DNA of 64,000 bases. Origin: Shigella phage Tf. The stretch is taken from the sequence record OR980947; one strand, 5' to 3'. Shown one piece after another: positions 3,523 through 64,000 of the stretch (within the stretch, counting starts at the first letter, position 1; the number at the start of each line of letters is the position of its first letter). The position numbers were made by a program, and so were the translations under genes. The notes under the pieces are model-generated. The model saw only the letters and a program-made list of their open reading frames with translations, ran no database searches and was not told the DNA's origin.

Positions 3523-3537
3523 TAGAGGTAAATTGGA

Positions 3538-3984
3538 ATGGCTATGTATCAGCAATATTCCCCTAAAGACGTTGTATGTAGCTGGAATGGTATTGCCATT
3601 GAAGGCTTTGCCCCAGACTCATTCTTGCGTCTACAGAGAACATCACCACTTATCACACCAGTTGTAGGTGCAGGTGGTCAAGTTGCTCTGACAAGAAATG
3701 CAGACAAGACAGGTACTATTGAGATTGAGCTAATGCAGACTTCTCTCTCTAACCAGATGCTTTCTGCAATTCAAGCTAAACAAGACAATATGGAACTTGA
3801 AGAAGATATCTCTTCTAACTTCGTAATCTACGACCCATCAGGCTCTGTTCTGGCAACTGGTATTAATGCTTGGTTGCAGGAATTACCACAGATTGAACTT
3901 GGTCGTGACCAGAACTCTAAAACTTGGATTTTTGGTTGTGAGAAGTTAGACTACACTTCTACAATTCCAGCGTCAAGTGTTTAA
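3538..3984 (+). CDS. putative tail tube protein
   Basis: 148 aa ORF between sheath-sized gene and chaperone/tape-measure genes; followed by a terminator. Confidence 0.5.
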   Translation: MAMYQQYSPKDVVCSWNGIAIEGFAPDSFLRLQRTSPLITPVVGAGGQVALTRNADKTGTIEIELMQTSLSNQMLSAIQAKQDNMELEEDISSNFVIYDPSGSVLATGINAWLQELPQIELGRDQNSKTWIFGCEKLDYTSTIPASSV

Positions 3985-3995
3985 TAAATCCTATA

Positions 3996-4029
3996 AGGGG
4001 GAGACTTTAAAAGGTCTTCCCCTTTTTTG
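3996..4029 (+). terminator. rho-independent terminator
   Basis: GC hairpin gggggagac...gtcttcccc followed by tttttt. Confidence 0.6.
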
Positions 4030-4057
4030 TTTCTTTTAAAAGTATTAAGGAATCACA

Positions 4058-4456
4058 ATGAAAACAGAATCTAGAGTAATTAATGGTAAGAAAGTAAATA
4101 TCGTTCTGCTTGGGGCGAGAGATGGTATTAAGATGTCTATGAAGTTGGGTAAAATTGTTGTTCCAACCTTTGCACAGATGCTGTCAAGTCTGACTGATAA
4201 AGATAAGAAAGAAGCTCCAATGGTTCCATTTAAAGAACTTGTTGAAGCTTGTTTTGACAGAATTGAAGAAATTAACCTTGAAGAAATGGCTACACTATTA
4301 TTTCAAGGGGCAACTGTTGATGACTTCCCACTTAATATTGATACATACTTCCAAGCAAACTACGGTGAATTTATTGATTACTTAGCATTTGCGCTGGAGG
4401 CAAACTTCGGAAGTTTTTTCGAAGCAAGCATTTTCAAAAGCCTAACTTCTCAGTAA
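4058..4456 (+). CDS. putative tail assembly chaperone
   Basis: 132 aa ORF immediately upstream of tape measure gene. Confidence 0.4.
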   Translation: MKTESRVINGKKVNIVLLGARDGIKMSMKLGKIVVPTFAQMLSSLTDKDKKEAPMVPFKELVEACFDRIEEINLEEMATLLFQGATVDDFPLNIDTYFQANYGEFIDYLAFALEANFGSFFEASIFKSLTSQ

Positions 4457-4458
4457 AC

Positions 4459-4696
4459 ATGGGTAATACTCTACAGACACCACTGACTGATGCTGCTGTA
4501 GAGGCAACCTATGAAGAAGCAGACGAGATGAAATTTGTGCTTGCTATTTATGGTATGGAAGGGTGTAAAGAAACACTTGACCAACTCTTTGCTATGACAT
4601 TCTCTGATTTATTATCATTGAGACAATTTCTTGAAATTCAGAGGTCGTATAAAGAGGAAATTGCTTACAACGAACTTAGAAGAGCAGGAAAATGTA

Positions 4697-4716
<20 letters not shown>
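4459..4716 (+). CDS. putative second tail assembly chaperone-like protein
   Basis: 85 aa ORF between chaperone and tape measure; overlaps tape measure start by about 20 nt. Confidence 0.3.
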
Positions 4717-10060
<5,344 letters not shown>

Positions 10061-13913: not shown

Positions 13914-16274
13914 ATGGCAGATTACAAATTGAGTCAATTAAACTCAATCGACACAATTCGTTCAGAAGACCTATTGCACATCAGAGTTAAGAAAAGACCT
14001 GAAATGTTGGGTGACGAAGACCGTCGAATGACCTATCAAGACTTCTTAGCATCTTTTAAACTAGAAAGATTTGTTCAGATTGCTGGTAGCACTATGACGG
14101 GTGACTTAGGAATTGTTAAGTTACTTTATGGTGGTAAGGCAGTCTTTGACCCAACAGGCTCTTCTGAGATTAATATTGGTGATGTTTTAAAGACTTTTAA
14201 AATCAACGCAAATGGTCTTAAGTTAACCGTTGCAGATGCTTCAAGGTCTGCAACTGTTTATCATACTCTTAATAAACCAAGCCCTAATGAACTTGGGATG
14301 AGAACCAATGAAGAGAACGATGCAAGGTATGCAAAACTATCTGCAAATAACATCTTTACATCCCAACAAACTATCCAAGCAAATGGTGAAGCTATTAGGT
14401 TAAAAAACTCTTCTGAGAACTCACCGTTGTATATCAGAGGTCAGGATAGTGCTGGTGAGAATAGATGGTATATCGGTAATGGTTCAGGGGGTGATAATGT
14501 TACTATCCGCAACCACAAGACAGACTGTGAAGTTATTCTATCTAGTGTCGTGGCTATCAATAAAACATTAAGCATCACGGGTCAAGTCAAACCTTCTGAC
14601 TTCTCTAACTTAGATGCTAGATATTTCACTCAGACAGTCGCTAATCAGAGATTTGCACAGTTAGCTGGCAATAACACCTTTACAGGTGCTAACACATTTA
14701 GGACTATGAGTGTTATTTCAAATGCTGCTGCCATCACACTGCAATGTGCATCAGCAAACGAATCCCTGTATCTACTTGCAAAAGATTATGAAGGTGGAAA
14801 CTTATGGTATCTTGGTAAAGATAGTTCAGGTGCTGGTGTAACTATCTACAACTATACCACTAACACCTCTTTGTTCTTAGATGCTGCTGGGGTATCAGCA
14901 AATAAAAATGTCAGAATCACTGGACAAGTTCAACCTTCAGATTGGACTAACATTGACTCTAGATACATTCCAGTAGCTACTTTGAGCAATCTTGCTAAAA
15001 TTAATGTGTCTAACACTTTCACAAATGTGCAGACTATTGTATCAAATAATGAAGGTGTAGTATTAAAGAACTTAACACAGGGACAGCCGCAATATATCCG
15101 TGGTGTTGATACTGCGAACGTATCTAGGTGGTGGGTAGGTGTAGGTGATGCAAATTCTACTGATGTAGCCTTAAACAACAGCTTCTCTGGGACTCAAATT
15201 ACTCTTATGACTTCAGCGATTAAGGCTAATAAGAATCTAACCATTACTGGTCAAGTACAACCTTCTGATTGGTCTAACTTAGATGCTAGATATTTCTTGA
15301 AAACAAAACTATTAAACCAATCTTTAATGACAAGGACAGCTAATAGACTGGATGACCCATCATCATTCAACAAAGATTATTCAGGGTTTGTAAGAAATAA
15401 TAACATAGAGCAGGGTCTGAAAGATTTAGCCATCCATGTAGCACATGCTGCTGGTATTGCTCATGCCAGAGGTATTGCTTTTGAATATGGGTCTACAGGT
15501 CTTAATGTCTTCACATATGCCTATGGCAAAAATGGTGACTATGCCGGAGAAGCACAGATTTATACAACTGCTTTTAAACCAACCCCTTCAGAAATTGGTG
15601 CATACACTAAAGCTGAAACTGACCAGAAGATTGCAGAAGCGATTAGTGACTCTACAGACCTTAATAAAATCTATCCAGTAGGTATTGTAACGTGGTTTAA
15701 CAGTAATGTTAACCCTAATACAGCACTTCCTGGTCTAACTTGGACGTACCTGAATAATGGTGTTGGTAGAACTATTAGAATTGCAGCAGCAAACGGTTCA
15801 GATGTTGCTACAACTGGTGGTTCAGACTCTGTAACGTTGTCTGTTGGTAACTTACCTTCACACACGCATAGTTTCTCTGGAACGACTTCTTGGTTTGACT
15901 ATGGAACTAAGTACACAGACGGTCAGGGTGCTCACGACCATGACAGAGGTAACATGGAAATCTCTGGTGACTTTGGTTTCTTCAGAAGTGATGCAAATAA
16001 CTTTTATACAGCAAGTGGGGCATTCGCTATCTCAGGTTCACAAGCCTCTAGGGGTTTTACTGGCTCTAAGTTCACTTATGGTACACCTGTCAACTTCTAC
16101 GCATCAAGAACTTGGACAGGGAGAACAAGCTGGGTAGGTGCTCATGCACATGGTGTAGGTATTGGTGCTCACAACCATACGGTAAGTGGTAACACAGGTG
16201 TCACAGGTTCTGGTTCAGCATTTAGTGTCACTAACCAATTCTATAAGTTAATGGCTTGGGTAAGAACTGCTTAA
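13914..16274 (+). CDS. long tail fibre protein with triplicated internal repeat and HxH C-terminal domain
   Basis: Three copies of ITGQV(K/Q)PSD(F/W)(S/T)N(L/I)D(A/S)RY; C-terminus shares LPSHTHSFSGTT and GAHAHGVGIGAHNHTV motifs with ORF 12692..13867. Confidence 0.55.
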   Translation: MADYKLSQLNSIDTIRSEDLLHIRVKKRPEMLGDEDRRMTYQDFLASFKLERFVQIAGSTMTGDLGIVKLLYGGKAVFDPTGSSEINIGDVLKTFKINANGLKLTVADASRSATVYHTLNKPSPNELGMRTNEENDARYAKLSANNIFTSQQTIQANGEAIRLKNSSENSPLYIRGQDSAGENRWYIGNGSGGDNVTIRNHKTDCEVILSSVVAINKTLSITGQVKPSDFSNLDARYFTQTVANQRFAQLAGNNTFTGANTFRTMSVISNAAAITLQCASANESLYLLAKDYEGGNLWYLGKDSSGAGVTIYNYTTNTSLFLDAAGVSANKNVRITGQVQPSDWTNIDSRYIPVATLSNLAKINVSNTFTNVQTIVSNNEGVVLKNLTQGQPQYIRGVDTANVSRWWVGVGDANSTDVALNNSFSGTQITLMTSAIKANKNLTITGQVQPSDWSNLDARYFLKTKLLNQSLMTRTANRLDDPSSFNKDYSGFVRNNNIEQGLKDLAIHVAHAAGIAHARGIAFEYGSTGLNVFTYAYGKNGDYAGEAQIYTTAFKPTPSEIGAYTKAETDQKIAEAISDSTDLNKIYPVGIVTWFNSNVNPNTALPGLTWTYLNNGVGRTIRIAAANGSDVATTGGSDSVTLSVGNLPSHTHSFSGTTSWFDYGTKYTDGQGAHDHDRGNMEISGDFGFFRSDANNFYTASGAFAISGSQASRGFTGSKFTYGTPVNFYASRTWTGRTSWVGAHAHGVGIGAHNHTVSGNTGVTGSGSAFSVTNQFYKLMAWVRTA

Positions 16275-23127: not shown

Positions 23128-23640
23128 TCAAATTAGTTTTGCAAACTCTCCGTGGAGTTTAATAGCAGCTTCACAGTAAGCTTTATGGGCTTCTTCAGGC
23201 GTGTCAAACATACCAAGATGATAGTTTTTACCTTGTAAACGTATCATTGCTCGAAACCTTTTATTTATCTTCTGTACACCTTTTGGCAACCCAGATAGGG
23301 ACTTTCTTGACCGATTGCAAGAGTTTTGTGAAGCTGTACAAACCCTTAAATTCAAGTACCTATTGTCCCAACCATCCCCATTCTTATGGTCAACCTGTAA
23401 GGTTTTATCAGGCAGATATCCATCAATATACAAGATAACTAAACGATTTGCTTGGTAACTCCTTCCATCAATCAGCAACTGAACTGACTTGTGTCCATCA
23501 GTATTTGTTCTGTAGTTTCCAGCCCTCTTACCTCCAAATCTAGAGTTAAAATTTGCATTACCTTCTCTAAACTTCCAAGTAAAGACCCCTGTTTCGGGGT
23601 CGTAGTCCAATAGCTCCTTAAGACGAATTTCTGTAATCAT
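23128..23640 (-). CDS. HNH homing endonuclease with AP2-like DNA-binding domain (free-standing)
   Basis: LLDYDPETGVFTW N-terminus, HNH core VDHKNGDGWDNRYLNLRVCTASQN, AP2-like GMFDTPEEAHKAY; probable start at 23640 within tracked ORF ending 23679. Confidence 0.75.
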   Translation of the reverse strand: MITEIRLKELLDYDPETGVFTWKFREGNANFNSRFGGKRAGNYRTNTDGHKSVQLLIDGRSYQANRLVILYIDGYLPDKTLQVDHKNGDGWDNRYLNLRVCTASQNSCNRSRKSLSGLPKGVQKINKRFRAMIRLQGKNYHLGMFDTPEEAHKAYCEAAIKLHGEFAKLI

Positions 23641-23650
23641 TTCAACACCA

Positions 23651-24207
23651 TCAATGTACCTCATACCAGCTCTTACCAACCTTACCTGTGCCAGTTACAA
23701 GCGTCTCACTCTTCAAACCTAAATTCTTAGATGCCTGACCATACATCCAGTCAGTTATGGCTTTAACTTCTTGAGTCATACTTTCTGGGCATTCCCAACT
23801 GTTCTCATCGTGGTATGCCAGCAAAAGTCTAGCACCAATTGCTGGTTTCCGTCCATTTAATTTTGTCAACCCTTCTTCACATGCTCTTCTACAAGCAAGG
23901 TTAATTGCCTCGTTCTGAATCTGACTTTCCGAACCCATGAGCAAATAATTCAACAACTTATGTGGAGATTTACACCACAACCAAGCTCCAGCAACCTTTA
24001 CAAAACCCCCTTTAGAGATTGCAGCAGTCTTACCAAACACCTCTTCAAGAGCCTTTTTAGTTGCTTTGTAGTCAGCTTCCAAGTCATCTAGCAGCTTCTT
24101 AATCTTTGGCAAACGCACAAAGTAAGTCTGTTTAGTTAATGCACCTTCCTGAGTAGTGGCTGCCTTAATAGTTTTAGCAAACTTTTCATCACCTGCACCG
24201 AACAATA
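23651..24207 (-). CDS. DNA polymerase (family A), exon 2
   Basis: Begins with motif B continuation LFGAGDEK (T7 pol FLYGAGDEK) and contains motif C YHDE; in-frame stop immediately upstream. Confidence 0.8.
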
Positions 24208-24518
24208 CATCTGGTCAATACACTCGCAAGGTGTACCAGTTCTCTTATGAACTTCTCCGCATTTCTACGGAGTGTCGGACTATATCACGTAGTAGTAATA
24301 CTACCGTTGCACTTGGGAATGGTCATTAGCTTACCACCCTACTCTACTCAGTTCATACATTAAGTATGCTTTTCGATAGTCTCTGAACGTTTCTCTGTTA
24401 GGAATCTCTATAGTTATGTTATTTGCTTTAGGAGTCCTAACAGAGACTTCGCTGCTGATTACCATATCTTTACAGACTTAGGCTTCCAGCAATTCACAAC
24501 GTTTTACATGCGCCACTG
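24208..24518 (-). ncRNA. group I self-splicing intron (ORF-less) in DNA polymerase gene
   Basis: Conserved group I elements on the minus-strand RNA: P gaattgctggaa, Q aatcagcagc, R gttcagagacta, S gatatagtcc; 5' splice after U, terminal G at 3' end; joining exons gives IYALLFGAGDEK. Confidence 0.75.
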
Positions 24519-26694
24519 ACGCATAGATACCATTCTTAGCCTTCTTGCGGCCTTTACTAATCTCATGAAGAAGATTCTCATCCTGAGTAGCTCGACAAGT
24601 CAAGATGTCCTGCTCATCATTCAAGCTAAAGTAAATACTGTTCAGTGTATGTGCATCAGTCCCTGAATAGACAACGTACAGGTCATTCTCAGAGTCATAG
24701 CGCAGGTACTTATCAATCTCTGGGTTGAGGTACTCATCAAAATGTTTACAGTAATAACGTCCATCTTCTTGACGAATAAACTCAATCTCTTCTTTACCTT
24801 GCGTTACCGCTTTGGTGAACTCTTTATCACCCATAAAGTTACAAAGTAGAACTAACTGGGCTGAGTTCATATCAACAGAGACTACGTTGGTTCCCTCTTC
24901 ACAAATCCACACCTCCCTCATAGGTGCTCCATAGACAGCAGCACCAGACGGTACGTTTACAATACCATATTGTGTCATTCGTCCAGTTGAAGTACCAAAC
25001 ACCATTGCACCAGCACTAAGGCGACCATCAGGACGAATCTGGTTCAACCAACCTTTTTCACCATCCTTTGAGTTCTCAATAGTTCTGCGTCGGTGCATCA
25101 AAGTATAGTACTTAGCAATCTTCTGTCCAAGCTCACCTTCAATCGTATCATAAGAAGACTCAGTAAGTTTTGGTGAAGTACGGATTAAGCAAGGTTCAAG
25201 CAAATCTGTGTACTTCTTCACAGACCAGTTATGCTCAATGTACTGTACACCTTCATGTTCAACATAGCTCAAACCACACCGCTCAACCATTTCCTGCCAC
25301 TTAGGATGTTTTGTAATCATCTTTTTATTGTCTTTGAAACGACAAACTTTGACAGGGCGACCGTCTGAGTCTTTCTTGTAGTTCCAGTCATCTGGAATCC
25401 AACCAACTGATTTCAAGTAGTCTTTAACAACTGCTACCTGAGTCATACGAGAAACTTCAAAATCAATTGGTGTATATGGTGCATCAATCAAACCTGTGTA
25501 GCGACTTGACTCAAGTTCAAAGTGGTTAACAACGTGACTGTTATAGTACTTCACAGTTTTAACTGTTTTTACTGGCTTCCAGTCTTTGCATTTCTTACCA
25601 ATCTTTGCATTCAACTCATTGCAAATTGCACGAGCATCCTTCATTGCTACAAAGCCTTCCTTGTACTCTTCACCAGTTACAGAGTTGGTTGGTGTATAGC
25701 AATTTCTCTTTTCAATGTTAAAAATCTTTGTAGTTGGCTTACCAAATGGCTTGATTTCATATGTCTGCATCTCACCGTTACGTACCTGCTGACGATACTT
25801 TGTCTTAGGGTACTTGGTAATTCTTTTCAGTCCATCTGCATGACCAAATGTTTCAACATACTCATTCCAAGCTTTTGCAAACTCTTCTCCAGTGACTTTA
25901 CCTTTGGTCTTAATAGTTGGAGGAAGATGTGGTTCAACTTCTGAAGCAAGCTCATTAGTCAACTTGTCAAGTTCCTTTACATGGAACTCCATAAGTTCTT
26001 TATCAGCTTTCCAACCATTGATAGCCTGTTGACTCATCCAGAAAGATGTTTCTTTAGCTCGCATGTAGGTTTCATAAGTGTCTATGCCACACTTCTTAAG
26101 CTTGAGATACTCATTATCAAGTGCCCGTTTAGTTTTGGCGTTAATACGGATATCTTCTACAACACGAGTGAAGATTTCTGCATTCCACACACCCCAATGC
26201 TCAATCTCTGGTTTACGAACACCAACACGAGCACCCCATGCAGCCAAACCATGAGCACCTTTATAACCCTTTGGAGTTGGTCTATCCATCCACTGAACAC
26301 GAGACTGGATAAGAGAGTCCTGAAAGAAATTACTCCACGGTTTACACTTTGGGTTATCAAAGTTCCATAAATCAGGTGCAATGTGATTGAAAACCCACCA
26401 GTCATAACCGAGACCGTTATGGATGCAAAGACGTTTTGCCTTTAACGCAAATTCAACGCCTTCACGCAAACCACCTTTAATGTACTTGGTATACTTGTGA
26501 CCGAGGATAGGCTCATCTGTAAAGACCCATACAGGCGGCTCTTCATCGTCAGATTTATAGTCTGCGAAAGCCATTACGTGCACTTTAGTGAACTCAAGGA
26601 GTAAACCATCAGTTTCTGTATCACCAACCAAATGTAAGTTTTTAAAATCTACGTTTTCCATTTCTACTCCCTCTAAATCATTAACCTCATACAT
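24519..26694 (-). CDS. DNA polymerase (family A), exon 1 with 3'-5' exonuclease domain
   Basis: Exo I motif GDTETDG; pol motif A VSVDMNSAQL; motif B start RKKAKNGIYA; tracked ORF runs 13 codons into the intron before a stop; alternative start at 26661 with gaggga RBS. Confidence 0.8.
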
Positions 26695-26917
26695 TACTGC
26701 AAAAAATTATAAAAAGCAAGTTGACAATGCACTTGACAAGGTGTTAATCTTTGCGAAGTGGGTTTTTACTTAAAAGGTTACTTAACAGTTTAACTATACA
26801 GATACTTTAAAACTCTTAAAAGATTATTTAAAAGCTTTTAAAAAGCTTTAAAGTATAACGTATAGAATACGTTAAGATAAAAGATTAAAACTTAATAGTT
26901 ACTTAAAAGAGGCTTAC
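26695..26917. promoter_or_regulatory. AT-rich divergent intergenic control region with palindromes
   Basis: Lies between divergent gene blocks; palindromes aaagcttttaaaaagcttt (26831-26849) and aacgtatagaatacgtt (26857-26873); duplicated cttgacaa. Confidence 0.45.
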
Positions 26918-32528: not shown

Positions 32529-33569
32529 ATGGAGAAGTATACGTTAACAAAACTTCCCGATTCAGTTACACATGTCTTTATTGACTCTGACAGTATTGCC
32601 TATAAAGGTGCTTGTGTAGTTGAGAAAGCAAAATATAAATACGTCAATAAACTCACAGCAGAAGAATCTGAATCATTTGATAATGCGAAAGATGCTGCAA
32701 GATGGTTAGCAGACCAGAGAATCCTTGTGGAAGAACTTGGCCTGACATTTGATGAAGATGAATGGGAAAGACAGACTTGGAAAGAAGCTAAGAGTGAAAA
32801 AGAAGCTATCATGGCTACTCAACAGGTGCTTCAGGAATGGCTTAAGGTTGTTGGTAAAGAGAGAACTTGGGTAGGTTATTTAACAGAGAAAGGTGTGCAT
32901 AAACATAAAGACATTAAAGGTCTTGAGCACCAATATCAAGGGAACCGTAAAGATGCTGTCACACCAACACACTTAGTCGCTTGTCGTGAATACCTTCTGT
33001 CAAGACCAGAGTTCAAGCTCTTAAGGGGCGGCTTCGAAGCCGATTCAATCGTAATTGCTAAAGCTGAAAAGATGGGTAAGAAAGCTGCTCTGATGAGTAT
33101 TGACAAAGACCTTCGACAAGCTGAAGGAACTTATTGCATTGATATGACTTATGAAAAGTCACCACTAATTTTTATCGCTGATAATAATGTTGGTGATATC
33201 TGGGATTGCCCTATCAAGTCAAAACCAAAAGCTGCAAAAACAGTTGGTGTAGGTTTTAAATTCTTGTGCTATCAGGCTGTTGCTGGAGATAATGCAGACA
33301 ACTACTTCGGCCTTAAAGGTGCTGGAAAAGTAGCTGTGATGAATGCTTTAGATGGTAAAGAGACCTATAAAGAGTGTCTTGACGCTATCTATGAACTCTA
33401 TGCTAAAAAAGACTCTTACACCTATGTATCATGGGATGGACAGACTGTTACAAAGACACCGTTAGAGCTAATGGAACAGCATTTCTTCCTAGCTTATCAA
33501 GAAAGAAATCCAAAAGATAATTTCTCTTTTAAGAAATATAATTGGGAGCCGTGTATGAATGAAGATTAA
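32529..33569 (+). CDS. 5'-3' exonuclease / flap endonuclease (T7 gp6-like)
   Basis: SIDKDLRQ and YQAVAGDNADNYFGLKGAG align to T7 gp6 ISCDKDFK and FQTIKGDITDGYSGIAGWG. Confidence 0.6.
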   Translation: MEKYTLTKLPDSVTHVFIDSDSIAYKGACVVEKAKYKYVNKLTAEESESFDNAKDAARWLADQRILVEELGLTFDEDEWERQTWKEAKSEKEAIMATQQVLQEWLKVVGKERTWVGYLTEKGVHKHKDIKGLEHQYQGNRKDAVTPTHLVACREYLLSRPEFKLLRGGFEADSIVIAKAEKMGKKAALMSIDKDLRQAEGTYCIDMTYEKSPLIFIADNNVGDIWDCPIKSKPKAAKTVGVGFKFLCYQAVAGDNADNYFGLKGAGKVAVMNALDGKETYKECLDAIYELYAKKDSYTYVSWDGQTVTKTPLELMEQHFFLAYQERNPKDNFSFKKYNWEPCMNED

Positions 33570-34056
33570 AGGATTTGGCAATTGTCCCACCTATGGTCAT
33601 TGGGTATCTTTATGTGGGGAAGTTGACCCCACTAAACATTTTGGCTTTGTCTATTTAGTGCACTGTAAGAAAACTGGGCAATACTATATAGGAAGGAAAC
33701 AGTTTAACAGTGTTACCAAAAGAAAAGTTGCTGGGAAGACTCGGAAGAAGGTAGTCACTAAGGAAAGTGATTGGATGACTTACGAGACTTCTTCTGAGTA
33801 TATTAAAAAAGATATTGAGAGCTTTGGAAAAGAATTTTTTGACTTTTACATTATCCAAACCTACTACACAAAAGGTGGCCTAGTTTATGGTGAAGCAAAC
33901 CTTCAACATAAGTTCGATGTAATGACAAAAAGGATTGACTCGAAGCTCAGACTCTTCTACAATGCCAATATTGCAGCAATTAAGTTTATCACTAAAGAAA
34001 CTTATGAAGATGCTGAAAAAAGAATCCATAAGGTAATGAAAGCAAATTGTGCTTGA
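33559..34056 (+). CDS. GIY-YIG homing endonuclease (free-standing)
   Basis: GIY-YIG motif FVYLVHCKKTGQYYIGRK near the N-terminus; overlaps 3' end of exonuclease gene. Confidence 0.6.
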   Translation: MKIKGFGNCPTYGHWVSLCGEVDPTKHFGFVYLVHCKKTGQYYIGRKQFNSVTKRKVAGKTRKKVVTKESDWMTYETSSEYIKKDIESFGKEFFDFYIIQTYYTKGGLVYGEANLQHKFDVMTKRIDSKLRLFYNANIAAIKFITKETYEDAEKRIHKVMKANCA

Positions 34057-42729: not shown

Positions 42730-42738
42730 AACTTGACA

Positions 42739-42778
42739 AGGTGATGTGGGTCTTGATAGGCTTACATCACCTTTTTTA
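42739..42778 (+). terminator. rho-independent terminator
   Basis: aggtgatgt ... acatcacct followed by tttttt. Confidence 0.55.
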
Positions 42779-42883
42779 TTGGATGTTAGACATGGCAGAG
42801 AGTATTATTGGGTTGTTCATAGGTTCTGTCTTACTAGGGTTCTTTTTAGGACTCTCTTATTGTGAGTTGAGAGATAAGTTAAA

Positions 42884-43084
42884 ATGTTTAAAATACCAAA
42901 AACGTTGATATACATACTCCATATTCTAATCTTCTTCTTTGGGGTTAGTGTTATGGTATGGGGTTTTTCAGACCCACAATGGGGTTTCTCATATCATGGT
43001 CAGATGGATTTATGGTCATGCTTCAAACCATTTTTAGGGTTAGCCATAGCATTCAGTACATTACCAACTAAGGTGAAATTATGA
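42884..43084 (+). CDS. small membrane protein
   Basis: 66 aa hydrophobic ORF. Confidence 0.3.
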   Translation: MFKIPKTLIYILHILIFFFGVSVMVWGFSDPQWGFSYHGQMDLWSCFKPFLGLAIAFSTLPTKVKL

Positions 43085-43296
43085 TTAAGTTGAACCAAAA
43101 ACAGTTAGAGTGGATTAAAGATAACGCTTCAGAGTACGGCTCTTGTGAAAAGAATCATGTAAGATACTCAACATTCCGCACGACATTTACATTGTACATC
43201 AGTGACAACGTTCTAAGTAAATCCATAGAAGATGGTGCAGCGTTGCCTAATGAGTTGCTTGACAAATTAGTTGTAGTCACTGGAACTTGGTCTTAA
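43081..43296 (+). CDS. hypothetical protein
   Basis: 71 aa ORF. Confidence 0.3.
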   Translation: MIKLNQKQLEWIKDNASEYGSCEKNHVRYSTFRTTFTLYISDNVLSKSIEDGAALPNELLDKLVVVTGTWS

Positions 43297-43535
43297 GAAG
43301 ACGGTCACGAACTATCTAACGATGTTGTCTTCTACAGTATTGATAACATTATGAATCCAGAGTACATTATGCTAATGACTTGTGCACAAGACTGTGTTCC
43401 ATTACAAAACTTCATTAAAGAGCACTGTGAAGAGTTTATTACTAAACAGGTTCCTTGTCAGGTAGTGTTTGAATGAGTAAAACAATTCGAAGAAAAGGTT
43501 TAAAGAACATTTATATTTATTGGTGAGGTAACTAG

Positions 43536-52644: not shown

Positions 52645-53544
52645 ATGGCTAAAGCAGAACTTGATAAATACTACACACCAGACGAAGTAATAAGTGTGTG
52701 TGAAGAGAAGCTACAAAAGGTCTTTAAAGGCTCTATTTCGTGCATTATAGACCCCTGTGCAGGTGACGGAAGATGGAAAGACTCTTTTAAGAGGGTTTGT
52801 CAAGATGTTGTGCTATACGACATCGAACCAGACTCTGAAGATGTTAGCACAAGAGACTTCCTGAAAGATGACTTAGAAATTCCAGATAAGCCTTTTGCGA
52901 TTGTTACCAACCCTCCATTTGGTAAGGCAAACAGTCTGTCTACAAAGTTCTTTAACAAGGCTGCTACAATGAATCCAGACTACATTTGCTTCCTAGTTCC
53001 TATTAACTTTGGGAAGAAGAATCTTAGCAGACTTAGCAGAGAGTACACCTGCATTGATGAAGTAGAGCTACCTAACCTTCATTTTGAAAGGATTGATGGA
53101 GTTGCCTACTCAGCAAAAGAGTCATCACTACGCTGTAACTTCCAAATCTGGAAGAGACAAAAACGGATAGATAAAATTTGTAAGATTGTACCTGTGATAG
53201 TTGATGGTGTAAGAGTCTATAAGCGTGAGAAATTCACACTATACAGACCACCATGTCACAAGATTGATGGTAAAGAGCAGCCAGTTGGTGTTTTAGGTAA
53301 ACTAGATGGCAAAGACTTGTTCACGATTATCACGCATGGTCGCAAGGCTGGTACTGTGAAGGTTTTTGAACCAGATAAAGACAAGGTGTCAGTGAAACAG
53401 TTTATCGAACCACACATAGAAGGACTTTACTCAGCAATCAAACAAGAATGGTTTAATGATTTGAGAGATGGTTTTGCACTGAGTTATGCAGGCTCTATCA
53501 ACTCACAAGAAATCATAAATACTTTAGAAAAACACTTGCATTAA
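52645..53544 (+). CDS. DNA N6-adenine methyltransferase (gamma-class, TaqI-like motif order)
   Basis: N-terminal YYTP, SAM motif IDPCAGDG, catalytic NPPF (TNPPFG). Confidence 0.7.
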   Translation: MAKAELDKYYTPDEVISVCEEKLQKVFKGSISCIIDPCAGDGRWKDSFKRVCQDVVLYDIEPDSEDVSTRDFLKDDLEIPDKPFAIVTNPPFGKANSLSTKFFNKAATMNPDYICFLVPINFGKKNLSRLSREYTCIDEVELPNLHFERIDGVAYSAKESSLRCNFQIWKRQKRIDKICKIVPVIVDGVRVYKREKFTLYRPPCHKIDGKEQPVGVLGKLDGKDLFTIITHGRKAGTVKVFEPDKDKVSVKQFIEPHIEGLYSAIKQEWFNDLRDGFALSYAGSINSQEIINTLEKHLH

Positions 53545-56513: not shown

Positions 56514-57398
56514 ATGAAGCCGATGTTCAAATATCTTGGTGGTAAAACAAGAATATTAAAAGAGTATGAGCGTTTAGGTGTCTTTCCAGACAACTGTACA
56601 AACTTCTATGACCTGTTTTCAGGTGGTGGTTCAGTGGCTATCTGGGCTTATAACAGATACCCAGAGGCAAAAGTGTTTATTAATGAGATAAATAAACATA
56701 TTATAGGTCTTTACACAACTTTCAGAGATGACTATGAAAACTTCATGGAAGAATTTGAGTACTTGTCAAAAAGGTACTTAGCCTTACCTATGCAGGAAGA
56801 GTATGCCGTGAAAGGTCAGCGTCATAACCGTCTACGCTATAAAATGTATTACAGTGTAAGAGAGGAACTTCTTTTGCTTGGTGAAGAGGGAGCATATGAC
56901 TACAGATACTATGCCAGACAGTTTTTCCTTCAAAAACTAAGTTTTGGTGGTGTATGGCAGACAACTAAAGAGATGAAAGGTCACTATGCAACACCTTGCG
57001 GGTATTTGCTGGAAGAAGAGATTTTCTTCACAAAAACTAAAGAATCACTATCCGAGTTTTACAGTTTTATCACCGATGAAAGGGTAATACTTAGCAGTGA
57101 ACCTTATGACAGGGTTGACATAGAACATGGAGGAGGTACAGTTATTTACTGTGACCCCCCGTATATCAACACCAACCAGAAATATGGTGCAAAGTTTGAC
57201 ATTGAGATGTCTGTAAAATTATGCGAAGATATGATTTCTTGGGGGGAGTTAGGCTCTAAAGTTTTGATGTCAAACTCTCAGTGGGATGGATGGGCAAAGC
57301 TAATTCCTGAAAATTTTAACTTGACAGAGGTTAGTCATTCATACACAATACATGCACAGAGAAGCAAAGATATTAACGAAGTAATTATTCACAACTAA
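56514..57398 (+). CDS. dam: Dam-family DNA N6-adenine methyltransferase (alpha-class)
   Basis: N-terminal YLGGKTRIL, SAM motif DLFSGGGSV, C-terminal catalytic DPPY. Confidence 0.75.
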   Translation: MKPMFKYLGGKTRILKEYERLGVFPDNCTNFYDLFSGGGSVAIWAYNRYPEAKVFINEINKHIIGLYTTFRDDYENFMEEFEYLSKRYLALPMQEEYAVKGQRHNRLRYKMYYSVREELLLLGEEGAYDYRYYARQFFLQKLSFGGVWQTTKEMKGHYATPCGYLLEEEIFFTKTKESLSEFYSFITDERVILSSEPYDRVDIEHGGGTVIYCDPPYINTNQKYGAKFDIEMSVKLCEDMISWGELGSKVLMSNSQWDGWAKLIPENFNLTEVSHSYTIHAQRSKDINEVIIHN

Positions 57399-59375: not shown

Positions 59376-59577
59376 AAAGACACGAAAAATTATCCGGTCA
59401 GCAGTACTCATTGGAAGAAATGAAGTGATTCCTTTTACAGCAAATGATGTGATAATCTACAGGAAAAAATTAGCATTCAGTTATTGCTTACGTGGCTTTA
59501 TCTCCCAGCCATTGGAAGACTTTAAAAGTCGTTGTGGTAAAGGTATCATCATTCAAGAGGCAATTATTCATGGCTGA
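59350..59577 (+). CDS. hypothetical protein
   Basis: 75 aa ORF. Confidence 0.25.
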   Translation: MKVILARDKKTRKIIRSAVLIGRNEVIPFTANDVIIYRKKLAFSYCLRGFISQPLEDFKSRCGKGIIIQEAIIHG

Positions 59578-59770
59578 TTTCTGCAAGAAGTGTGCAATAG
59601 AACATTTTGGTGTTGATACAGGGGACTTGAAAGGTCTCTTCACCAAAGAAGAGTTTGAAGCTGGTTCAGCTATGCCAGTAATCTGTGAAGGTTGTGGATG
59701 TATCTGGGTAGACCATGAAGGGCAACGTGTAAAACCTTCAGAAGATAAAGAATCTTGGGAGAGATGTTAA
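59570..59770 (+). CDS. small cysteine-rich (zinc-binding) protein
   Basis: ATG at 59570; CKKC ... CEGCGC cysteine motifs; 66 aa. Confidence 0.3.
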   Translation: MADFCKKCAIEHFGVDTGDLKGLFTKEEFEAGSAMPVICEGCGCIWVDHEGQRVKPSEDKESWERC

Positions 59771-60556
59771 ATGGGTATTGTAAAAATCATCAATGGTGAT
59801 ATCTTTAATGCTTTTGATAAAGGTAAGTTTGACATCATTGGTCACGGTTGTAATTGTATGAATTTAATGGGTGCAGGTATCGCTGACAAGATTTCTAAAC
59901 TTTACCCAAAAGCATATGAGACCGATACAGAAGTTTACCTATATGCAGGTGGCATAGGTCACAAACCCTGTGAAAATTTACTGGGTAATTTCTCTGTAGC
60001 ACGTTTAAAACAAGGTCGTATAGCTAACCTTTACACTCAGCTTAAAACTGGTAAAGATGCCAGATACAGTGCTTTAGAGTCATCTTTGAAGCAGCTTAAC
60101 AGATACTGTGAAGTTAATCAGTTGAAGAAAGTCGGTTTACCTATGATTGGTGCAGGTATCGGTGGGTTGGACCCTCAAGCCGTCACAGTTATCATCAATC
60201 AGGTGATGAAGAGTGTAGATGTTTATCTATATGTCTATGAAGGAGAGATGTACCACAAGTTACGCTCAGGTTGGAAGAACTACTGTGAACCAGAATACTT
60301 TGCAGGTGTAGTTGTGTTCACGGATAATGCAGTTACCCTCTTCAGACGAAGAAAAGGTAAGATACATCAAAGTAACCCTCCGGTTGAAAAGATGTCTCTG
60401 AGTAACGCTCTAGTTACCCACCTGTCGAAGAGCAATCACAGGATTGCAGTAACATTTGGCAGCGATGCAGATACTTACATCTATGCAAGAACTGATGAGG
60501 ATATCGAAGCAATTTTCTCTTCACCAGAAGTTACCTTCTTAGACGCAAAGAACTAA
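59771..60556 (+). CDS. macrodomain protein (ADP-ribose binding/hydrolase family) with C-terminal extension
   Basis: Macro motifs GDIFNAFDKGKFDIIGHGCNCMNLMGAGIADKI and GLPMIGAGIGGLDP. Confidence 0.6.
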   Translation: MGIVKIINGDIFNAFDKGKFDIIGHGCNCMNLMGAGIADKISKLYPKAYETDTEVYLYAGGIGHKPCENLLGNFSVARLKQGRIANLYTQLKTGKDARYSALESSLKQLNRYCEVNQLKKVGLPMIGAGIGGLDPQAVTVIINQVMKSVDVYLYVYEGEMYHKLRSGWKNYCEPEYFAGVVVFTDNAVTLFRRRKGKIHQSNPPVEKMSLSNALVTHLSKSNHRIAVTFGSDADTYIYARTDEDIEAIFSSPEVTFLDAKN

Positions 60557-60586
60557 GAAACTCTGTAGAATATTCACAATAGATTA

Positions 60587-60635
60587 AGCCTTCCTTATCT
60601 GGTAAATTTTTCAGGTAAGGAAGGCTTTTTTATTT
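60587..60635 (+). terminator. rho-independent terminator
   Basis: agccttcctta ... taaggaaggct hairpin followed by ttttttattt. Confidence 0.65.
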
Positions 60636-60639
60636 CAAG

Positions 60640-60825
60640 ATTGTGCAGGTAGAGTTCTGTAGAGAAATCTGTAGAGAAAATTTTGAACTCCAAAGAGAAA
60701 ATTCATTTTCAAACTGTGCAGGTAATCTCCAAAGAGATTTTTCATTTTCAAAACGTGCAGAGAAAAATCAGGTCGGGCAAGAAAAATCATTTTAGAATTG
60801 TGCAGGTAGGTGGGTGCAGGTGGGG
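60640..60825. repeat. iteron-like direct repeat cluster in a ~500-bp noncoding region
   Basis: gtgcag(g) recurs at about 60643, 60715, 60746, 60800, 60814; tandem ctgtagagaaa x2; cattttcaaaac x2. Confidence 0.6.
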
Positions 60826-60984
60826 ATGTCGCCATTTCTCACAAGGCTACCACATCTGAAAAGAAAAGTCAACAGAAAAATTTGTAGCGGATTGAAAAAT
60901 AATTCTTGATTTGTGTTCTGTTTTGTGGTATTCGCGCGCACCCGTTTCATTACATTTTTGCCAAAAATATTTTTAAAATTTTTC

Positions 60985-61013
60985 TTGACTATTCGAACGG
61001 GGTTATCTAGTAT
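60985..61013 (+). promoter_or_regulatory. early promoter (ttgact-N17-tagtat) with conserved leader
   Basis: -35 ttgact, 17-nt spacer, -10 tagtat; leader hairpin ggagagggaatgaccttcccc and shared RBS leader ccttaaactaggagattcaaaaATG. Confidence 0.55.
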
Positions 61014-61077
61014 TTGCATCAACGGAGAGGGAATGACCTTCCCCACTAAATTAACCCTTAAACTAGGAGATTCAAAA

Positions 61078-61266
61078 ATGGTATCAAGAAAAATTAAAGT
61101 TGGCGATGAGGTTAACATTAAGCACGAATACTCTTACAAAATGCTAACTATACGCTCTTATAAGGTTTATCAGGTGGAAGCTATCCACAAAGATAATACT
61201 TTTTCCTTAAAAGGGTATAGCGAACGTTTCCCCGCTGAACTCTTTGAGAAATGGAGCGCGAAATAA
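61078..61266 (+). CDS. small early protein (62 aa)
   Basis: ATG preceded by taggag RBS within conserved leader. Confidence 0.4.
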   Translation: MVSRKIKVGDEVNIKHEYSYKMLTIRSYKVYQVEAIHKDNTFSLKGYSERFPAELFEKWSAK

Positions 61267-61472
61267 TGCTTTACAGTCGTGAATTGATGGTTACAAATAA
61301 CGTTAACACAAATGTAAAACGTTTTTACATGAAAATCTGTGGTGTATGGTCCAGAATATCAGAAGCCGACTATTGCAACTATGTAGAAACGGCAATCAAC
61401 TCTGATTGTTATCTTACAAAGAATACTAAAAAATTTACGAGACAGACAGCAGTTTACTACTACGATATCTAA
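61266..61472 (+). CDS. small early protein (68 aa)
   Basis: ATG overlapping upstream stop (taATG). Confidence 0.3.
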   Translation: MLYSRELMVTNNVNTNVKRFYMKICGVWSRISEADYCNYVETAINSDCYLTKNTKKFTRQTAVYYYDI

Positions 61473-61560
61473 TAAAGTACTTTACAAGGGGCTTATAGTT
61501 CGATAAAGTAAGCCCCAGATAAAGAGCTTTACCACTAAATCCTAAATTGGAGAACTTAAA
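61472..61560 (+). repeat. intergenic repeat cassette type A (hairpin + promoter/RBS leader), copy 1
   Basis: aaagtactttacaaggggcttatagttcgataaagtaagccccagataaagagctttaccactaaatcctaaattggagaac; near-identical at 63129 and 63926, variant at 61816. Confidence 0.6.
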
Positions 61561-61561
61561 A

Positions 61562-61819
61562 ATGGCTATTATCAAAAACGTTGTAATTACTGTAAAGACT
61601 CGTGATGACGCTCGTATCATGGCTAAAAAGTTATGCGGGAAAGTGGTTGACAACGGAAAACAATCTGCTGTAAGGTGGGGCGTGAAGGTTGATAAACAAC
61701 TAACCTTAAAACGCAGTTCAAACAACCTTTTTAAAGGTGTAAAATCACTCGGTAAAGTGAACGTTTTTACCAAAAAAGGCTATAAAATGCACTTATCATT
61801 AACTGGCAATTTAATCTGA
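61562..61819 (+). CDS. small early protein (85 aa)
   Basis: ATG after conserved cassette with ggagaa RBS. Confidence 0.4.
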   Translation: MAIIKNVVITVKTRDDARIMAKKLCGKVVDNGKQSAVRWGVKVDKQLTLKRSSNNLFKGVKSLGKVNVFTKKGYKMHLSLTGNLI

Positions 61820-61908
61820 TAAAGTACTTTACAGGGGGCTTAAAAGCTGATATCTTAAGCCCCAGATAAAGAGCTTTACTAACTAACCTTAAACTAGGAG
61901 ATTCAAAA
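61816..61908 (+). repeat. intergenic repeat cassette type A (variant), copy 2
   Basis: ctgataaagtactttacagggggcttaaaagctgatatcttaagccccagataaagagctttac followed by shared leader ccttaaactaggagattcaaaaATG. Confidence 0.55.
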
Positions 61909-62421
61909 ATGAAAACTGTAGACGCTACCTTTGAAGTTGTAAAAGAAAAATTTTCCATCATTTACGAAGCTGTCAACTGCTACGAACCAAGTCATGCCCT
62001 TGAAGATTGGGAATTTACAGATGACCATCAAGGCGGGGTAACTATAAAAAATCCTAACTATCAACACAATGCATTTAAATATGCAATCCCTTTACATTAC
62101 AGCCTGAAACAGCTTTCGAGTGACTATGCAAAACAAGGCCGGGCAAATCCATCCCGTGAGGCTTATATCAGCTTACAGGAAGAACTGCAAAGGGATTTAG
62201 AAGCTTCAGAATATTACCTATCTGCAAAAGTTGTCGATGCAAACGGGAAAACGGTTTTAGATAGTTTTTCTATTGGTTACGCTTTCGATTGGTGCTATAG
62301 TGACGGCGTCGATTTAGCGGATAGACTAAAAGAGGAAGTGAGCAATTCAGGCGCAGAATCTGAAGTTATGGAACAATTAGAAGCCTTAAAAGATTCAGTG
62401 ATGAATATCTTTAAAAATTAA
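61909..62421 (+). CDS. early protein (170 aa)
   Basis: ATG after shared leader. Confidence 0.4.
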   Translation: MKTVDATFEVVKEKFSIIYEAVNCYEPSHALEDWEFTDDHQGGVTIKNPNYQHNAFKYAIPLHYSLKQLSSDYAKQGRANPSREAYISLQEELQRDLEASEYYLSAKVVDANGKTVLDSFSIGYAFDWCYSDGVDLADRLKEEVSNSGAESEVMEQLEALKDSVMNIFKN

Positions 62422-62437
62422 ATTAAGAGGAAACAGC

Positions 62438-62770
62438 ATGTTAATGATGGGTATCACTGCAATCATTGCCATTGTAGCACTTTATAAGGCATATAAAGCC
62501 TATAATCTGGCAAGTAAGGCAATCACACAACAGGTTAGCAATAGCCTTGTAGAGAGCTTTCTGGAGCGTTTAAGCAATGAGCAATTAAAACGGTTAGAAA
62601 TGAGCTTCAGATTCCAATCAAAAACTTATCAAATCAGCGACATTTTTAAAGAGGATTTTCAGCTTGTCGATGATTATAATTCACTGATAAATGCTTTAAA
62701 TGTCAGTGACTTAAAAGACTACTACGCTGTAATTGTTCAAGAACTGAGCAAACGAAAACAAAATGCTTGA
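62438..62770 (+). CDS. small early protein with N-terminal TM helix (110 aa)
   Basis: Hydrophobic N-terminus MLMMGITAIIAIVALY; stop overlaps next promoter. Confidence 0.35.
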   Translation: MLMMGITAIIAIVALYKAYKAYNLASKAITQQVSNSLVESFLERLSNEQLKRLEMSFRFQSKTYQISDIFKEDFQLVDDYNSLINALNVSDLKDYYAVIVQELSKRKQNA

Positions 62771-62859
62771 CACTGGTTTTTAGATAGATTAAATTACACA
62801 TCAACGGGGAGGGAATGGCCTTCCCACTAAATAAAGTCCTTAAACTAGGAGGTTCTAAA
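62758..62859 (+). repeat. promoter cassette type B, copy 2 (ttgaca-N17-taaatt + leader hairpin)
   Basis: cttgacactggtttttagatagattaaattacacatcaacggggagggaatggccttccc; near-identical to 63624..63727; related to 60981..61077. Confidence 0.6.
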
Positions 62860-63132
62860 ATGTATACTACTAACAACGGTCGCACTTTAAATGCCACACT
62901 ACGTCACTATGTAGATGGTGTCATGCACTTTGAGGATTTACAAGCTGAGCAACACATCTTAGATTGGCAAGTCGCAGGACTCCAAAAAACTGCTACCGGA
63001 TACGGTAAAAAGATTCCAACTAGTTGGAAAGTACACTACGAAGGCCGTTTGCGCAGAATTTATCAGGATGTGCAAAGCAATAGTGCATCGAGTTACATCA
63101 TGGTAAAAGGTAAAAAGCTGCATCTAGTGTAA
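62860..63132 (+). CDS. small early protein (90 aa)
   Basis: ATG after taggag RBS in conserved leader. Confidence 0.4.
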   Translation: MYTTNNGRTLNATLRHYVDGVMHFEDLQAEQHILDWQVAGLQKTATGYGKKIPTSWKVHYEGRLRRIYQDVQSNSASSYIMVKGKKLHLV

Positions 63133-63218
63133 AGTACTTTACAAGGGGCTTATAGTTCGATAAAGTAAGCCCCAGATAAAGAGCTTTACCACTAAATCCT
63201 AAATTGGAGAACTTGAAA
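63129..63218 (+). repeat. intergenic repeat cassette type A, copy 3
   Basis: Near-identical to 61472..61560 including hairpin ggggcttatagttcgataaagtaagcccc. Confidence 0.6.
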
Positions 63219-63623
63219 ATGGCTATTAATAACCGTGAATTATCAATTTTAAAAGCACGTTTGACCGTTAACCGGATTAATGTTATTACGTCATCAGCAC
63301 CAGATGAAACATTGCACAACATTATTGGGAAGATTCAAAGTGTTATCTTAGACGTTGAAAACGTGAAAAACTCATTAACTGACGTTGCAGTAGGTATCAC
63401 GCTAGACGGTGCACAATACGAAATGGCTGACATGTTGGGCAAATCTAAGGTAATGAATAAAGAGCTGGATTTGAAAATGTTTCGTTTTGCCGTGAAAGTA
63501 TGGCTATCCGTCGAATATGATGCTAATTATGCAATCGCTGACTTTTTCGCCACTTGGTTGCAGCGTAATTTGACAAATCACGATTTTCGTAATATCTGCG
63601 ATGCAATCTATTCAGAACTTTAA
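63219..63623 (+). CDS. early protein (134 aa)
   Basis: ATG after conserved cassette. Confidence 0.4.
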   Translation: MAINNRELSILKARLTVNRINVITSSAPDETLHNIIGKIQSVILDVENVKNSLTDVAVGITLDGAQYEMADMLGKSKVMNKELDLKMFRFAVKVWLSVEYDANYAIADFFATWLQRNLTNHDFRNICDAIYSEL

Positions 63624-63727
63624 AAAATTTTCTTGACACTGGTTTTTAGATAGATTAAATTACACATCAACGGGGAGGAAATGACTTCCCCACTAAATAA
63701 AAACCCTTAAACTAGGAGATTCAAAAA
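63624..63727 (+). repeat. promoter cassette type B, copy 3
   Basis: tcttgacactggtttttagatagattaaattacacatcaacggggaggaaatgacttcccc then shared RBS leader. Confidence 0.6.
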
Positions 63728-63925
63728 ATGGCTATTGTTAACGGTTTAAACATTGAAACTACTCACATCAAAGATATCAAAGTCGGTGATATAGTCCTTT
63801 TTCACGGCGTAGAAAGAACTGTTACTGAAAAGGATATCAAGGAGGATTCATTCATGGGCCGGACTCTCTTTGGTGATTCATATTGCTTAGGTTACCTTGC
63901 AGTTTTAAAAGTTGTCAAAAATTAA
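63728..63925 (+). CDS. small early protein (65 aa)
   Basis: ATG after shared leader. Confidence 0.4.
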   Translation: MAIVNGLNIETTHIKDIKVGDIVLFHGVERTVTEKDIKEDSFMGRTLFGDSYCLGYLAVLKVVKN

Positions 63926-64000
63926 CTGATAAAGTACTTTACAAGGGGCTTATAGTTCGATAAAGTAAGCCCCAGATAAAGAGCTTTACCACTAAATCCT
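63926..64000 (+). repeat. intergenic repeat cassette type A, copy 4 (truncated by window end)
   Basis: ctgataaagtactttacaaggggcttatagttcgataaagtaagccccagataaagagctttaccactaaatcct. Confidence 0.55.

Follow-up and report, generated by a model that had tools for sequence, protein, structure and literature searches.

A conserved array of four bipartite direct repeats in a non-coding gap of Shigella phage Tf and other Ounavirinae as a putative set of protein-binding sites

The DNA considered here, a 64,000-nucleotide stretch of Shigella phage Tf (sequence record OR980947) that we refer to as the window, contains a non-coding gap of 521 bp (60557-61077), which is bounded by the stop codon of a macrodomain gene and by an ATG at 61078 and which harbors the cluster of direct repeats that is the subject of this report. 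By its sequence the window is part of a Felixounavirus genome: a 900-bp query around the cluster matched 288 phage records, nearly all of them from Felixounavirus or other Ounavirinae (the Felix O1-like myoviruses), with Escherichia phage LNA1 being the best match at 96% identity. Read from left to right, the gap is composed of the terminator of the upstream operon, four repeat units, a variable G+C-rich tract, an A/T-rich block of 48 bp, a semi-conserved stretch, an A/T-rich upstream element and the first early promoter (Table 1). This agrees with the initial annotation, in which a non-coding gap of about 500 bp had been placed between the macrodomain terminator and the first early promoter. 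The macrodomain gene, directly upstream, is the sole gene that always adjoins the repeats, and on the opposite side the early promoter, whose TTGAC and whose TA...T of the -10 element are invariant in nine of nine aligned genomes and which is annotated in ASO1B, drives the first of several small, individually promoted genes.

All four repeat units, each about 34 nt long, point in the same direction on the plus strand and are accommodated inside approximately 190 bp of the gap. Their consensus, aCTCCAAAGrG-W5-TCATTT-N7-GTGCAGgt, begins with a purine-rich segment and continues with a 5-nt A- or T-tract and two non-palindromic half-sites, TCATTT and GTGCA, which are separated by exactly 7 A/T-rich bases; this separation puts the half-sites about one helical turn apart. 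The GTGCA anchors start at 60643, 60716, 60755 and 60800, corresponding to spacings of 73, 39 and 45 bp, and the units are nearly contiguous, with intervening spacers of about 3-10 nt except for one of about 40 nt. The left half of unit 1 is at the same time the 3' arm and T-tract of the upstream terminator.

The repeated strings named by the initial annotation are all present, even though its view of the repeat unit needs to be refined. It had counted at least five copies of gtgcag(g), and five GTGCAG hexamers indeed occur on the plus strand within 186 bp (at the four anchors and at 60814); the actual unit, however, is the 34-nt element, of which there are four full copies, and the fifth hexamer has no TCATTT half-site. 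Similarly, cattttcaaaac, listed there as a separate duplicated string, does occur twice, but as parts of units 2 and 3, and CATTTTCAAA(A)C is found twice as well (60704 and 60743). The clustering of GTGCAG is not a product of chance. With a plus-strand background of 0.067 per 186 bp, the Poisson probability of at least five copies is 1e-8 per 186-bp stretch, or about 7e-6 when multiplied by the approximately 690 such stretches of both strands. Moreover, the pattern TCATTT-N7-GTGCA has three exact matches in the 64-kb window, all of them in the array, where 0.09 would be expected and where none of 100 shuffles reached three; and the 22-mer TCATTTTCAAACTGTGCAGGTA, with up to 3 mismatches allowed, likewise found matches in the array only when the window was scanned. 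As for the fifth GTGCAGG, comparison of sequences indicates that it is a clade-specific duplication present in some Felixounavirus only, being intact in the window, in Z31 and in five further sequences (L027, L028, L031, L032 and L042; L numbers are our own handles), degenerate in six others (L019, L024-L026, L033 and L035) and represented by a single copy in VpaE1. Conservation of the tandem TCTGTAGAGAAA is also lower outside Felixounavirus.

Table 1. Features in and around the non-coding gap (window positions)
Feature	Position	Strand	Remarks
Macrodomain ('phosphatase') gene	59771-60556	+	Pfam Macro match; PHROG 335; syntenic in all relatives examined
Intrinsic terminator of the upstream operon	60586-60637	+	17-pair hairpin (60586-60627) and T-tract; terminator scan, inverted repeat; annotated in ASO1B
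Unit 1	60613-60654	+	TTATTT at 60630-60635 (TCATTT in most relatives), N7, GTGCA at 60643-60647; near-invariant in 29 distinct relatives
Tandem TCTGTAGAGAAA x2	60656-60679	+	Perfect; found with Tandem Repeats Finder; in the 73-bp interval between units 1 and 2
Unit 2, AACTCCAAAGAGAAAATTCATTTTCAAACTGTGCAGGTAATC	60686-60727	+	TCATTT at 60703, GTGCA at 60716
Unit 3, ATCTCCAAAGAGATTTTTCATTTTCAAAACGTGCAGAGAAAA	60725-60766	+	TCATTT at 60742, GTGCA at 60755
Unit 4, AGGTCGGGCAAGAAAAATCATTTTAGAATTGTGCAGGTAGGT	60770-60811	+	TCATTT at 60787, GTGCA at 60800; orthologous to unit 3 of Erwinia phage phiEa104
Fifth GTGCAGG	60814-60827	+	14-bp duplication of the end of unit 4; no TCATTT half-site, not a full unit
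Variable G+C-rich tract	60809-60863	+	Strand-asymmetric; G-rich in the window; lowest conservation in the gap
48-bp A/T-rich block, AAAGTCAAnAGAAAAATTTGTAGCGGATTGAAAAATAATTCTTGA	60864-60911		Almost every column 100% over 29 Felixounavirus, Suspvirus and Mooglevirus sequences
First early promoter	60962-61013	+	A/T-rich upstream element; -35 TTGACT at 60985-60990; 17-bp spacer; -10 TAGTAT at 61008-61013
Spurious 66-aa open reading frame over units 2-4	60635-60835	-	Start codon, length and frame not conserved
Spurious neighboring open reading frames	60595-60693, 60792-61118	-	Start, length and frame differ among relatives

The array follows the terminator of the macrodomain gene in every genome examined. 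These genomes represent four genera, namely Felixounavirus (Felix O1, UAB_Phi87, wV8, VpaE1, Z31, SPJ41 and many IMG/VR contigs), Suspvirus (SUSP2 and mistaenkt), Mooglevirus (ESh22 and L036-L041) and Kolesnikvirus of Erwinia (phiEa104 and L062), in the latter two of which the macrodomain protein is 64-66% identical to that of the window (Mooglevirus) or 45% identical over 58% of its length (Kolesnikvirus). Judged by this comparison, the array is syntenic across the subfamily Ounavirinae; a lack of conservation in related genomes, which the initial annotation had specified as evidence against its proposal, is thus the opposite of what is seen. In 12 units chosen to represent three lineages, neither half-site (TCATTT, GTGCA) nor the 7-nt distance varies and the preceding tract always consists of either five A's or five T's, and across 29 distinct gap sequences the unit cores are conserved to about 100%, while the inter-unit spacers and the tract at 60809-60863 are variable. 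The spacing of 73/39/45 recurs in 23 distinct arrays of Felixounavirus and Suspvirus, whereas Mooglevirus has 75/41/45 or 77/39/45 and Kolesnikvirus 37/37/39, so that spacing is fixed within lineages; genomes of the Si3-like type have three units only. In Suspvirus and Mooglevirus, identity to the window amounts to 73-85% for the array, compared with 70-73% for the macrodomain gene and 60-75% for the upstream 1 kb. By these alignments, the array is the most strongly conserved non-coding element that we found in the subfamily.

Conservation of this kind also bears on the origin of the units. Unit 1 is built from the 3' arm and T-tract of the terminator, and the other units resemble unit 1, which suggests that the array probably arose by duplication of the terminator tail. 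It could perceivably be argued that the units are nothing but a non-functional remnant of such tandem duplications, carried along passively. However, the array is conserved as well as or better than the neighboring genes over four genera, and its half-sites are invariant in the midst of variable spacers. Furthermore, all four Kolesnikvirus units read GTGCAT(A) in place of the GTGCAG(G) found elsewhere. Individual units can be matched between the genera as well (unit 4 of the window, GGGCAAGAAAAATCATTTTAGAATTGTGCAG, is orthologous to unit 3 of phiEa104, TGGCAAGAAAAATCATTTTCGATTTGTGCAT). A concerted change of G to T in every copy is difficult to reconcile with passive carriage, and we regard a mere remnant as extremely improbable.

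We next consider what the units could encode or resemble other than DNA sites. In many Felixounavirus genomes an open minus-strand frame spans units 2-4 (the spacings of 39 and 45 bp being divisible by 3); several records list it as a hypothetical protein, and in the clade of the window a promoter-like site, TTGACT-17-TAGCCT, read by eye and absent from the promoter scan, precedes it on the same strand. Hence, one could envisage a minus-strand gene for a small protein or else a non-coding RNA, with the DNA repeats arising as a by-product of peptide or RNA repeats. The start codon, length and frame of this open reading frame (ORF) nevertheless differ between genera; the frame is broken by a 2-nt deletion in wV8, by the lack of a 14-bp segment in VpaE1 and by spacings of 37 and 41 bp, and the units of Mooglevirus and Kolesnikvirus fall in different minus-strand frames. 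In addition, the variable N7 positions alter all three codon positions, and the promoter-like site is not conserved. With respect to RNA, RNAalifold returned consensus energies of -8.5 and -3.2 kcal/mol for the two strands with covariation near 0, that is, no conserved structure on either strand, and an Rfam scan of the gap gave only sub-threshold eukaryotic matches. A minus-strand gene or a non-coding RNA is therefore very unlikely, in accord with the initial annotation, which had considered the minus-strand ORFs probably spurious, and the hypothetical-protein genes annotated over the gap in many GenBank records are artefacts.

Several other identities were tried and rejected. No consistent -35/-10 pair of a sigma-70 promoter was seen by eye inside the units on either strand, and the promoter scan lists none in 60621-60811; given also that the motif is unique in the genome, the units are not a promoter family. 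A hairpin followed by a T-tract, as required for one terminator per unit, has a 6-bp stem in unit 3 of the window only and is not conserved. A CRISPR array can be dismissed too, as the spacers (about 3-10 nt, one about 40 nt) are not the regular ones of about 30 nt. Finally, none of the host-factor sites compared with the units by eye (DnaA, IHF, Fis, CRP, marbox, UP element and EcoKI) fits, a formal scan having been made for DnaA only.

Outside the array, the core of the unit is absent from the window and also from the other approximately 25 kb of the genome of one relative. A pattern of two units, searched against 2.9 M viral contigs of IMG/VR, was found in Ounavirinae only, apart from four unrelated coding tandem repeats; it gave 19 unrelated matches, none of them in Enterobacterales, in GTDB (one genome per prokaryotic species), and no match in 5,426 E. 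coli genomes. In the literature that we searched, no paper mentions the motif, or an origin, a transcriptome or a repeat array for Ounavirinae, and the Bas63 essentiality map covers genes, the gap being outside its scope. The array thus apparently has not been described before, although it is of a known kind, a protein-binding array of direct repeats.

Some properties of the remaining part of the gap and its surroundings deserve mention at this point. In place of the G-rich sequence that the window has in the tract next to unit 4, most relatives carry a homopyrimidine mirror repeat, CCCCTCTCCCCCTCTTACTCCCCCTCTCCCC (for example at L012 1020-1095), a sequence with the potential for triplex (H-DNA) formation; at this tract several metagenomic contigs stop, and the KhF1 record becomes low-quality sequence there. 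The 48-bp block that follows is conserved above the level of the repeat units themselves. Each of its strands carries a -35-like hexamer (minus, TTGACT; plus, TTGATT), the two being divergent; 17 bp beyond the plus-strand hexamer comes a non-canonical TGnTAKKYG element, and in the window TTGATT (60906) together with TATTCG (60929) is a candidate weak promoter. The early genes farther downstream (61078-64000 of the window; L004, L007, L014, L080 and L081) are organized as modules of a promoter, a hairpin in the 5' untranslated region and a gene, which are shuffled among relatives; accordingly, the first gene after the gap varies by genome (MVSRKIK..., MAYRAPKF... or MIYSREL...), with the junction at the promoter or in the 5' untranslated region. 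Apparent insertions of 280-480 bp into the gap (ekra and C600M2) proved to be an extra early-gene module located after the promoter and not between it and the array.

Taken together, the comparisons characterize the array as a unique element that is under purifying selection at the level of DNA, and we propose that it very probably represents a functional array of protein-binding sites. One asymmetric protein, acting either as a monomer with a pair of DNA-reading elements or as an asymmetric dimer, would occupy each unit, and four bound copies would build a nucleoprotein complex beside the G+C tract, the invariant A/T-rich block and the first strong early promoter. The switch to GTGCAT in all Kolesnikvirus units is what one would expect from co-evolution with a binding protein; it cannot, however, tell a phage protein from a host factor, because host and phage phylogenies coincide. 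It seems more likely to us that the binder is encoded by the phage than by the host.

What such a complex would do is a more difficult question. Our favored but tentative answer, to which we assign a probability of roughly 0.3, is replication initiation: the complex may mark the site where replication starts or where the replisome is loaded, with transcription nearby helping to open or prime the DNA. We favor this role in view of the uniqueness of the locus, its iteron-like anatomy and the proximity of both a promoter and A/T-rich DNA. The initial annotation had considered arrays of this type typical of replication origins, packaging sites or multi-site operators; the iteron-like cluster is real, and of the three roles origin and early-gene control are the ones that we retain, as possibilities of graded strength, while packaging, as argued below, has to be given up.

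Iteron origins of plasmids and lambdoid phages (R6K gamma, F, pPS10, P1 oriR and lambda ori) share with the array the presence, at one unique locus, of several direct repeats that all face the same way; such origins have three or more, and the array has four, all on the plus strand. Monomeric two-domain Rep proteins read iterons as bipartite sites over about two major grooves, and the unit of the array, bipartite and non-palindromic, likewise extends over about two major grooves. The differences are equally clear: our units are longer and more widely spaced, no cognate Rep gene was recognized, there is neither an outstanding adjacent A/T-rich unwinding element nor a DnaA-box cluster, and the replisome is T7-like. 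An iteron cluster at oriE of phage T4 was reportedly described by Vaiskunaite et al. in 1999. The array resembles it in consisting of direct repeats of one orientation in a virulent myovirus, syntenic in related phages and near early transcription; yet the repeats of T4 are 12 nt long and evenly spaced, whereas those described here are about 34 nt, contain a bipartite 18-nt core and are unevenly spaced at 73/39/45. No genes similar to RepEA or RepEB were recognized, and the likeness considered here is one of layout. In T4, the iteron cluster is conserved and its role is undefined (PMC3016281).

The primary origin of T7 offers a further comparison. It consists of promoters phi1.1A/B and an AT-rich region, and it operates with phage RNA polymerase promoters and without iterons. 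Like T7, the phages studied here have a replisome with PolA and a gp4-like primase-helicase, and they have one or more intergenic promoters and A/T-rich DNA some way from one end. The T7 origin is nonetheless defined by promoters of the phage RNA polymerase, while the Felix O1-like phage uses the host RNA polymerase (PMC3185647). Should the array initiate replication after all, it might tentatively be assigned to a new origin class among phages, characterized by long bipartite iterons and by an initiator conserved across Ounavirinae.

A number of observations weigh against replication initiation. First, no recognizable initiator of the Rep or O type, and no DNA-binding or initiator family that would single out a candidate binder, was found among the flanking proteins and those of the replication module in Pfam, PHROG and NCBIfam scans; the small flanking proteins received no functional family assignment in the same scans, and a PDB sequence search with a 285-aa protein gave no match. 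Second, the replisome is T7-like (split PolA, gp4-like primase-helicase, exonuclease and ligase), and origins of the T7 type need no iterons. Third, the least stable 40-mers of the gap have about -44 to -45 kcal/mol, compared with a window mean of -49.9 (sd 2.8) and an extreme near -40, and none of the 15 least stable sites of the window lies in the gap, which hence has no outstanding DNA-unwinding element; nor does it have a DnaA-box cluster, the two one-mismatch matches to TTWTNCACA in its 521 bp being at the background rate. Fourth, iterons are usually 17-22 bp long at a spacing of about 22 bp, unlike the 34-bp unit and the spacings of 37-45 and 73 bp in the array, whose helical phasing is not conserved between genera. 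Fifth, a competing candidate exists at 26695-26917, a divergent intergenic region adjoining the replication genes and flanked by the minus-strand DNA polymerase gene and by genes of the plus strand; the 40-mer of lowest stability in the window (26872-26911) is located there, along with several CTTAAAAG-like repeats, and the region is, from its sequence, a better candidate for a classical AT-rich origin, or else a pair of divergent early promoters. Finally, the literature that we searched holds no experimental data on replication or binding.

Almost as likely as replication initiation, though still no better than a possibility, is a role of the array in early transcription, either as a control or as a boundary element. 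The four sites would then bind a regulator, be it an early or middle protein of the phage or a host factor, that times, silences or insulates the early-gene block near the genome end, for instance by preventing read-through out of the rIIA-macrodomain operon, through a DNA loop to the first early promoter, or by serving as the nucleation point of a repressive complex. Such a role is consistent with the fact that in Felixounavirus and Kolesnikvirus the array always has a strong terminator on one side and the first strong early promoter on the other, approximately 180-200 bp downstream of it, that the gap and promoter stay constant among relatives while the genes downstream are shuffled, and that the invariant block with its -35-like hexamers sits between the array and the promoter. 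On the other hand, the sites are located 180-365 bp upstream of the -35 element (with the end of the last unit at 60811 and the first base of the -35 at 60985, the array spans about -175 to -370), which is far for sigma-70 operators, as these overlap the promoter or lie within about 100 bp of it, and inspection of the sequence revealed no promoter of the sigma-54 type, for which a distant enhancer would be needed. Nor is the helical phasing of the sites with respect to the promoter conserved, and the uniqueness of the motif implies that the other early promoters have no such sites, so that the array cannot be a general early-gene operator.

The remaining roles depend on where the genome ends. 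Felix O1-like phages have fixed ends with a direct terminal repeat of 608-613 bp (PMC4837284, PMC6454146). In the SPJ41 record an exact 613-bp repeat is found at both ends, and the order is the direct terminal repeat (1-613), small genes (1067-6222) and the gap (6222-6738). This repeat maps to 15639-16252 of the UAB_Phi87 locus L004, in which the gap occupies 9001-9522; and when the published 4322-bp end fragment is added to the SpeI site at 11817 of the same locus, the resulting position, 16139, falls inside 15639-16252. Since the SPJ41 repeat and the UAB_Phi87 SpeI fragment agree, sequence comparison places the physical ends outside the window (past position 64000), about 6 kb rightward of the gap and in another non-coding region. 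The gap itself could be suspected of being the terminal repeat of about 610 bp, as four records or contigs (KhF1, Andreotti, L020 and L022) break there, but both the SPJ41 ends and the SpeI fragment put it elsewhere.

With a terminal repeat about 6 kb away from the array, a packaging site, one of the options of the initial annotation, becomes unlikely. Repeat arrays are common at pac sites, and Felix O1 has no identified small terminase subunit (PMC3185647), both of which would suit a pac-type recognition site for terminase; the ends are fixed, however, and the terminal region holds repeat arrays of its own, which makes this function of the array very improbable. The terminal repeat and its flanks (L005 1-650, L006 900-2000 and L007 1-613) are packed with short repeats of the CTTAACAG / CTAACAAG type, which are a separate system, probably connected with the formation of the ends.

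The same map raises the question of whether the array could act as a checkpoint of DNA entry, similar to the injection stop signal (iss) of phage T5, by holding the incoming DNA through a membrane-associated or virion protein until a host-takeover block of about 6 kb has been expressed. According to this scenario, the end block would enter and be expressed first and a phage protein would then release the rest of the genome, a T5-like strategy implemented with different sequence elements. The layout fits: the terminal repeat is succeeded by about 5.6 kb of small, individually promoted genes and then by the array, some 7% of the genome away from the physical end, and the T5 iss resides in an untranslated, repeat-rich region bordering a pre-early block of 7.9% (10.1101/866236). 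The gap resembles the T5 iss in being untranslated, repeat-rich, conserved among relatives and situated at the inner edge of small early genes near an end, about 7-8% from that end, as the order of SPJ41 illustrates. In contrast, the T5 iss is located inside a terminal repeat of about 10 kb and comprises 8 DnaA boxes, inverted repeats and palindromes (10.1101/866236), whereas the terminal repeat is only about 610 bp here and lies elsewhere, and the array consists of direct repeats only. The gap has no DnaA-box cluster and no prominent palindromes save the terminator, both being conserved hallmarks of the T5 iss; moreover, two-step injection is not reported for Felix O1-like myoviruses in the literature searched. 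We therefore judge a checkpoint of this kind to be improbable.

Several further observations were made in the window. The macro part of the macrodomain protein has a weak DarG-like match (47.9 bits versus a family cutoff of 250), and its C-terminal extension of about 100 residues has no known fold assigned to it; the single-sequence AlphaFold model, with a predicted local distance difference test score of 32, is unusable for these C-terminal 100 or so residues. Just upstream of the macrodomain gene, 59572-59770 encodes a 66-aa protein (MADFCKKC...CEGCGC...) whose cysteines (CKKC and CEGCGC) look zinc-ribbon-like by eye, so that it could be a nucleic-acid binder; its sole family match is a PHROG with no assigned function. 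Two DNA-methyltransferase-like ORFs (52645-53544 and 56514-57398) lie between rIIB and the macrodomain gene. The gene for the family-A DNA polymerase is split on the minus strand into ORFs 24478-26694 and 23651-24205, with an ORF for a homing endonuclease of the HNH/AP2 type (23128-23679) at the junction, and in the replication module an ORF for a SegE-type GIY-YIG endonuclease is present at 33559-34056. The longest ORF-poor stretch of the window, 806 bp with no ORF of at least 75 aa, is at 42730-43535.

Felix O1 is a classic phage for the typing of Salmonella, and phages related to it find use in biocontrol and in phage therapy. Nothing done in silico fixes the function of the array; it nevertheless provides a single, small and clearly bounded handle on the biology of replication and early regulation in this widely used group of phages. 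As regards engineering, insertions into or deletions from the seemingly empty 520-bp gap are probably not neutral.

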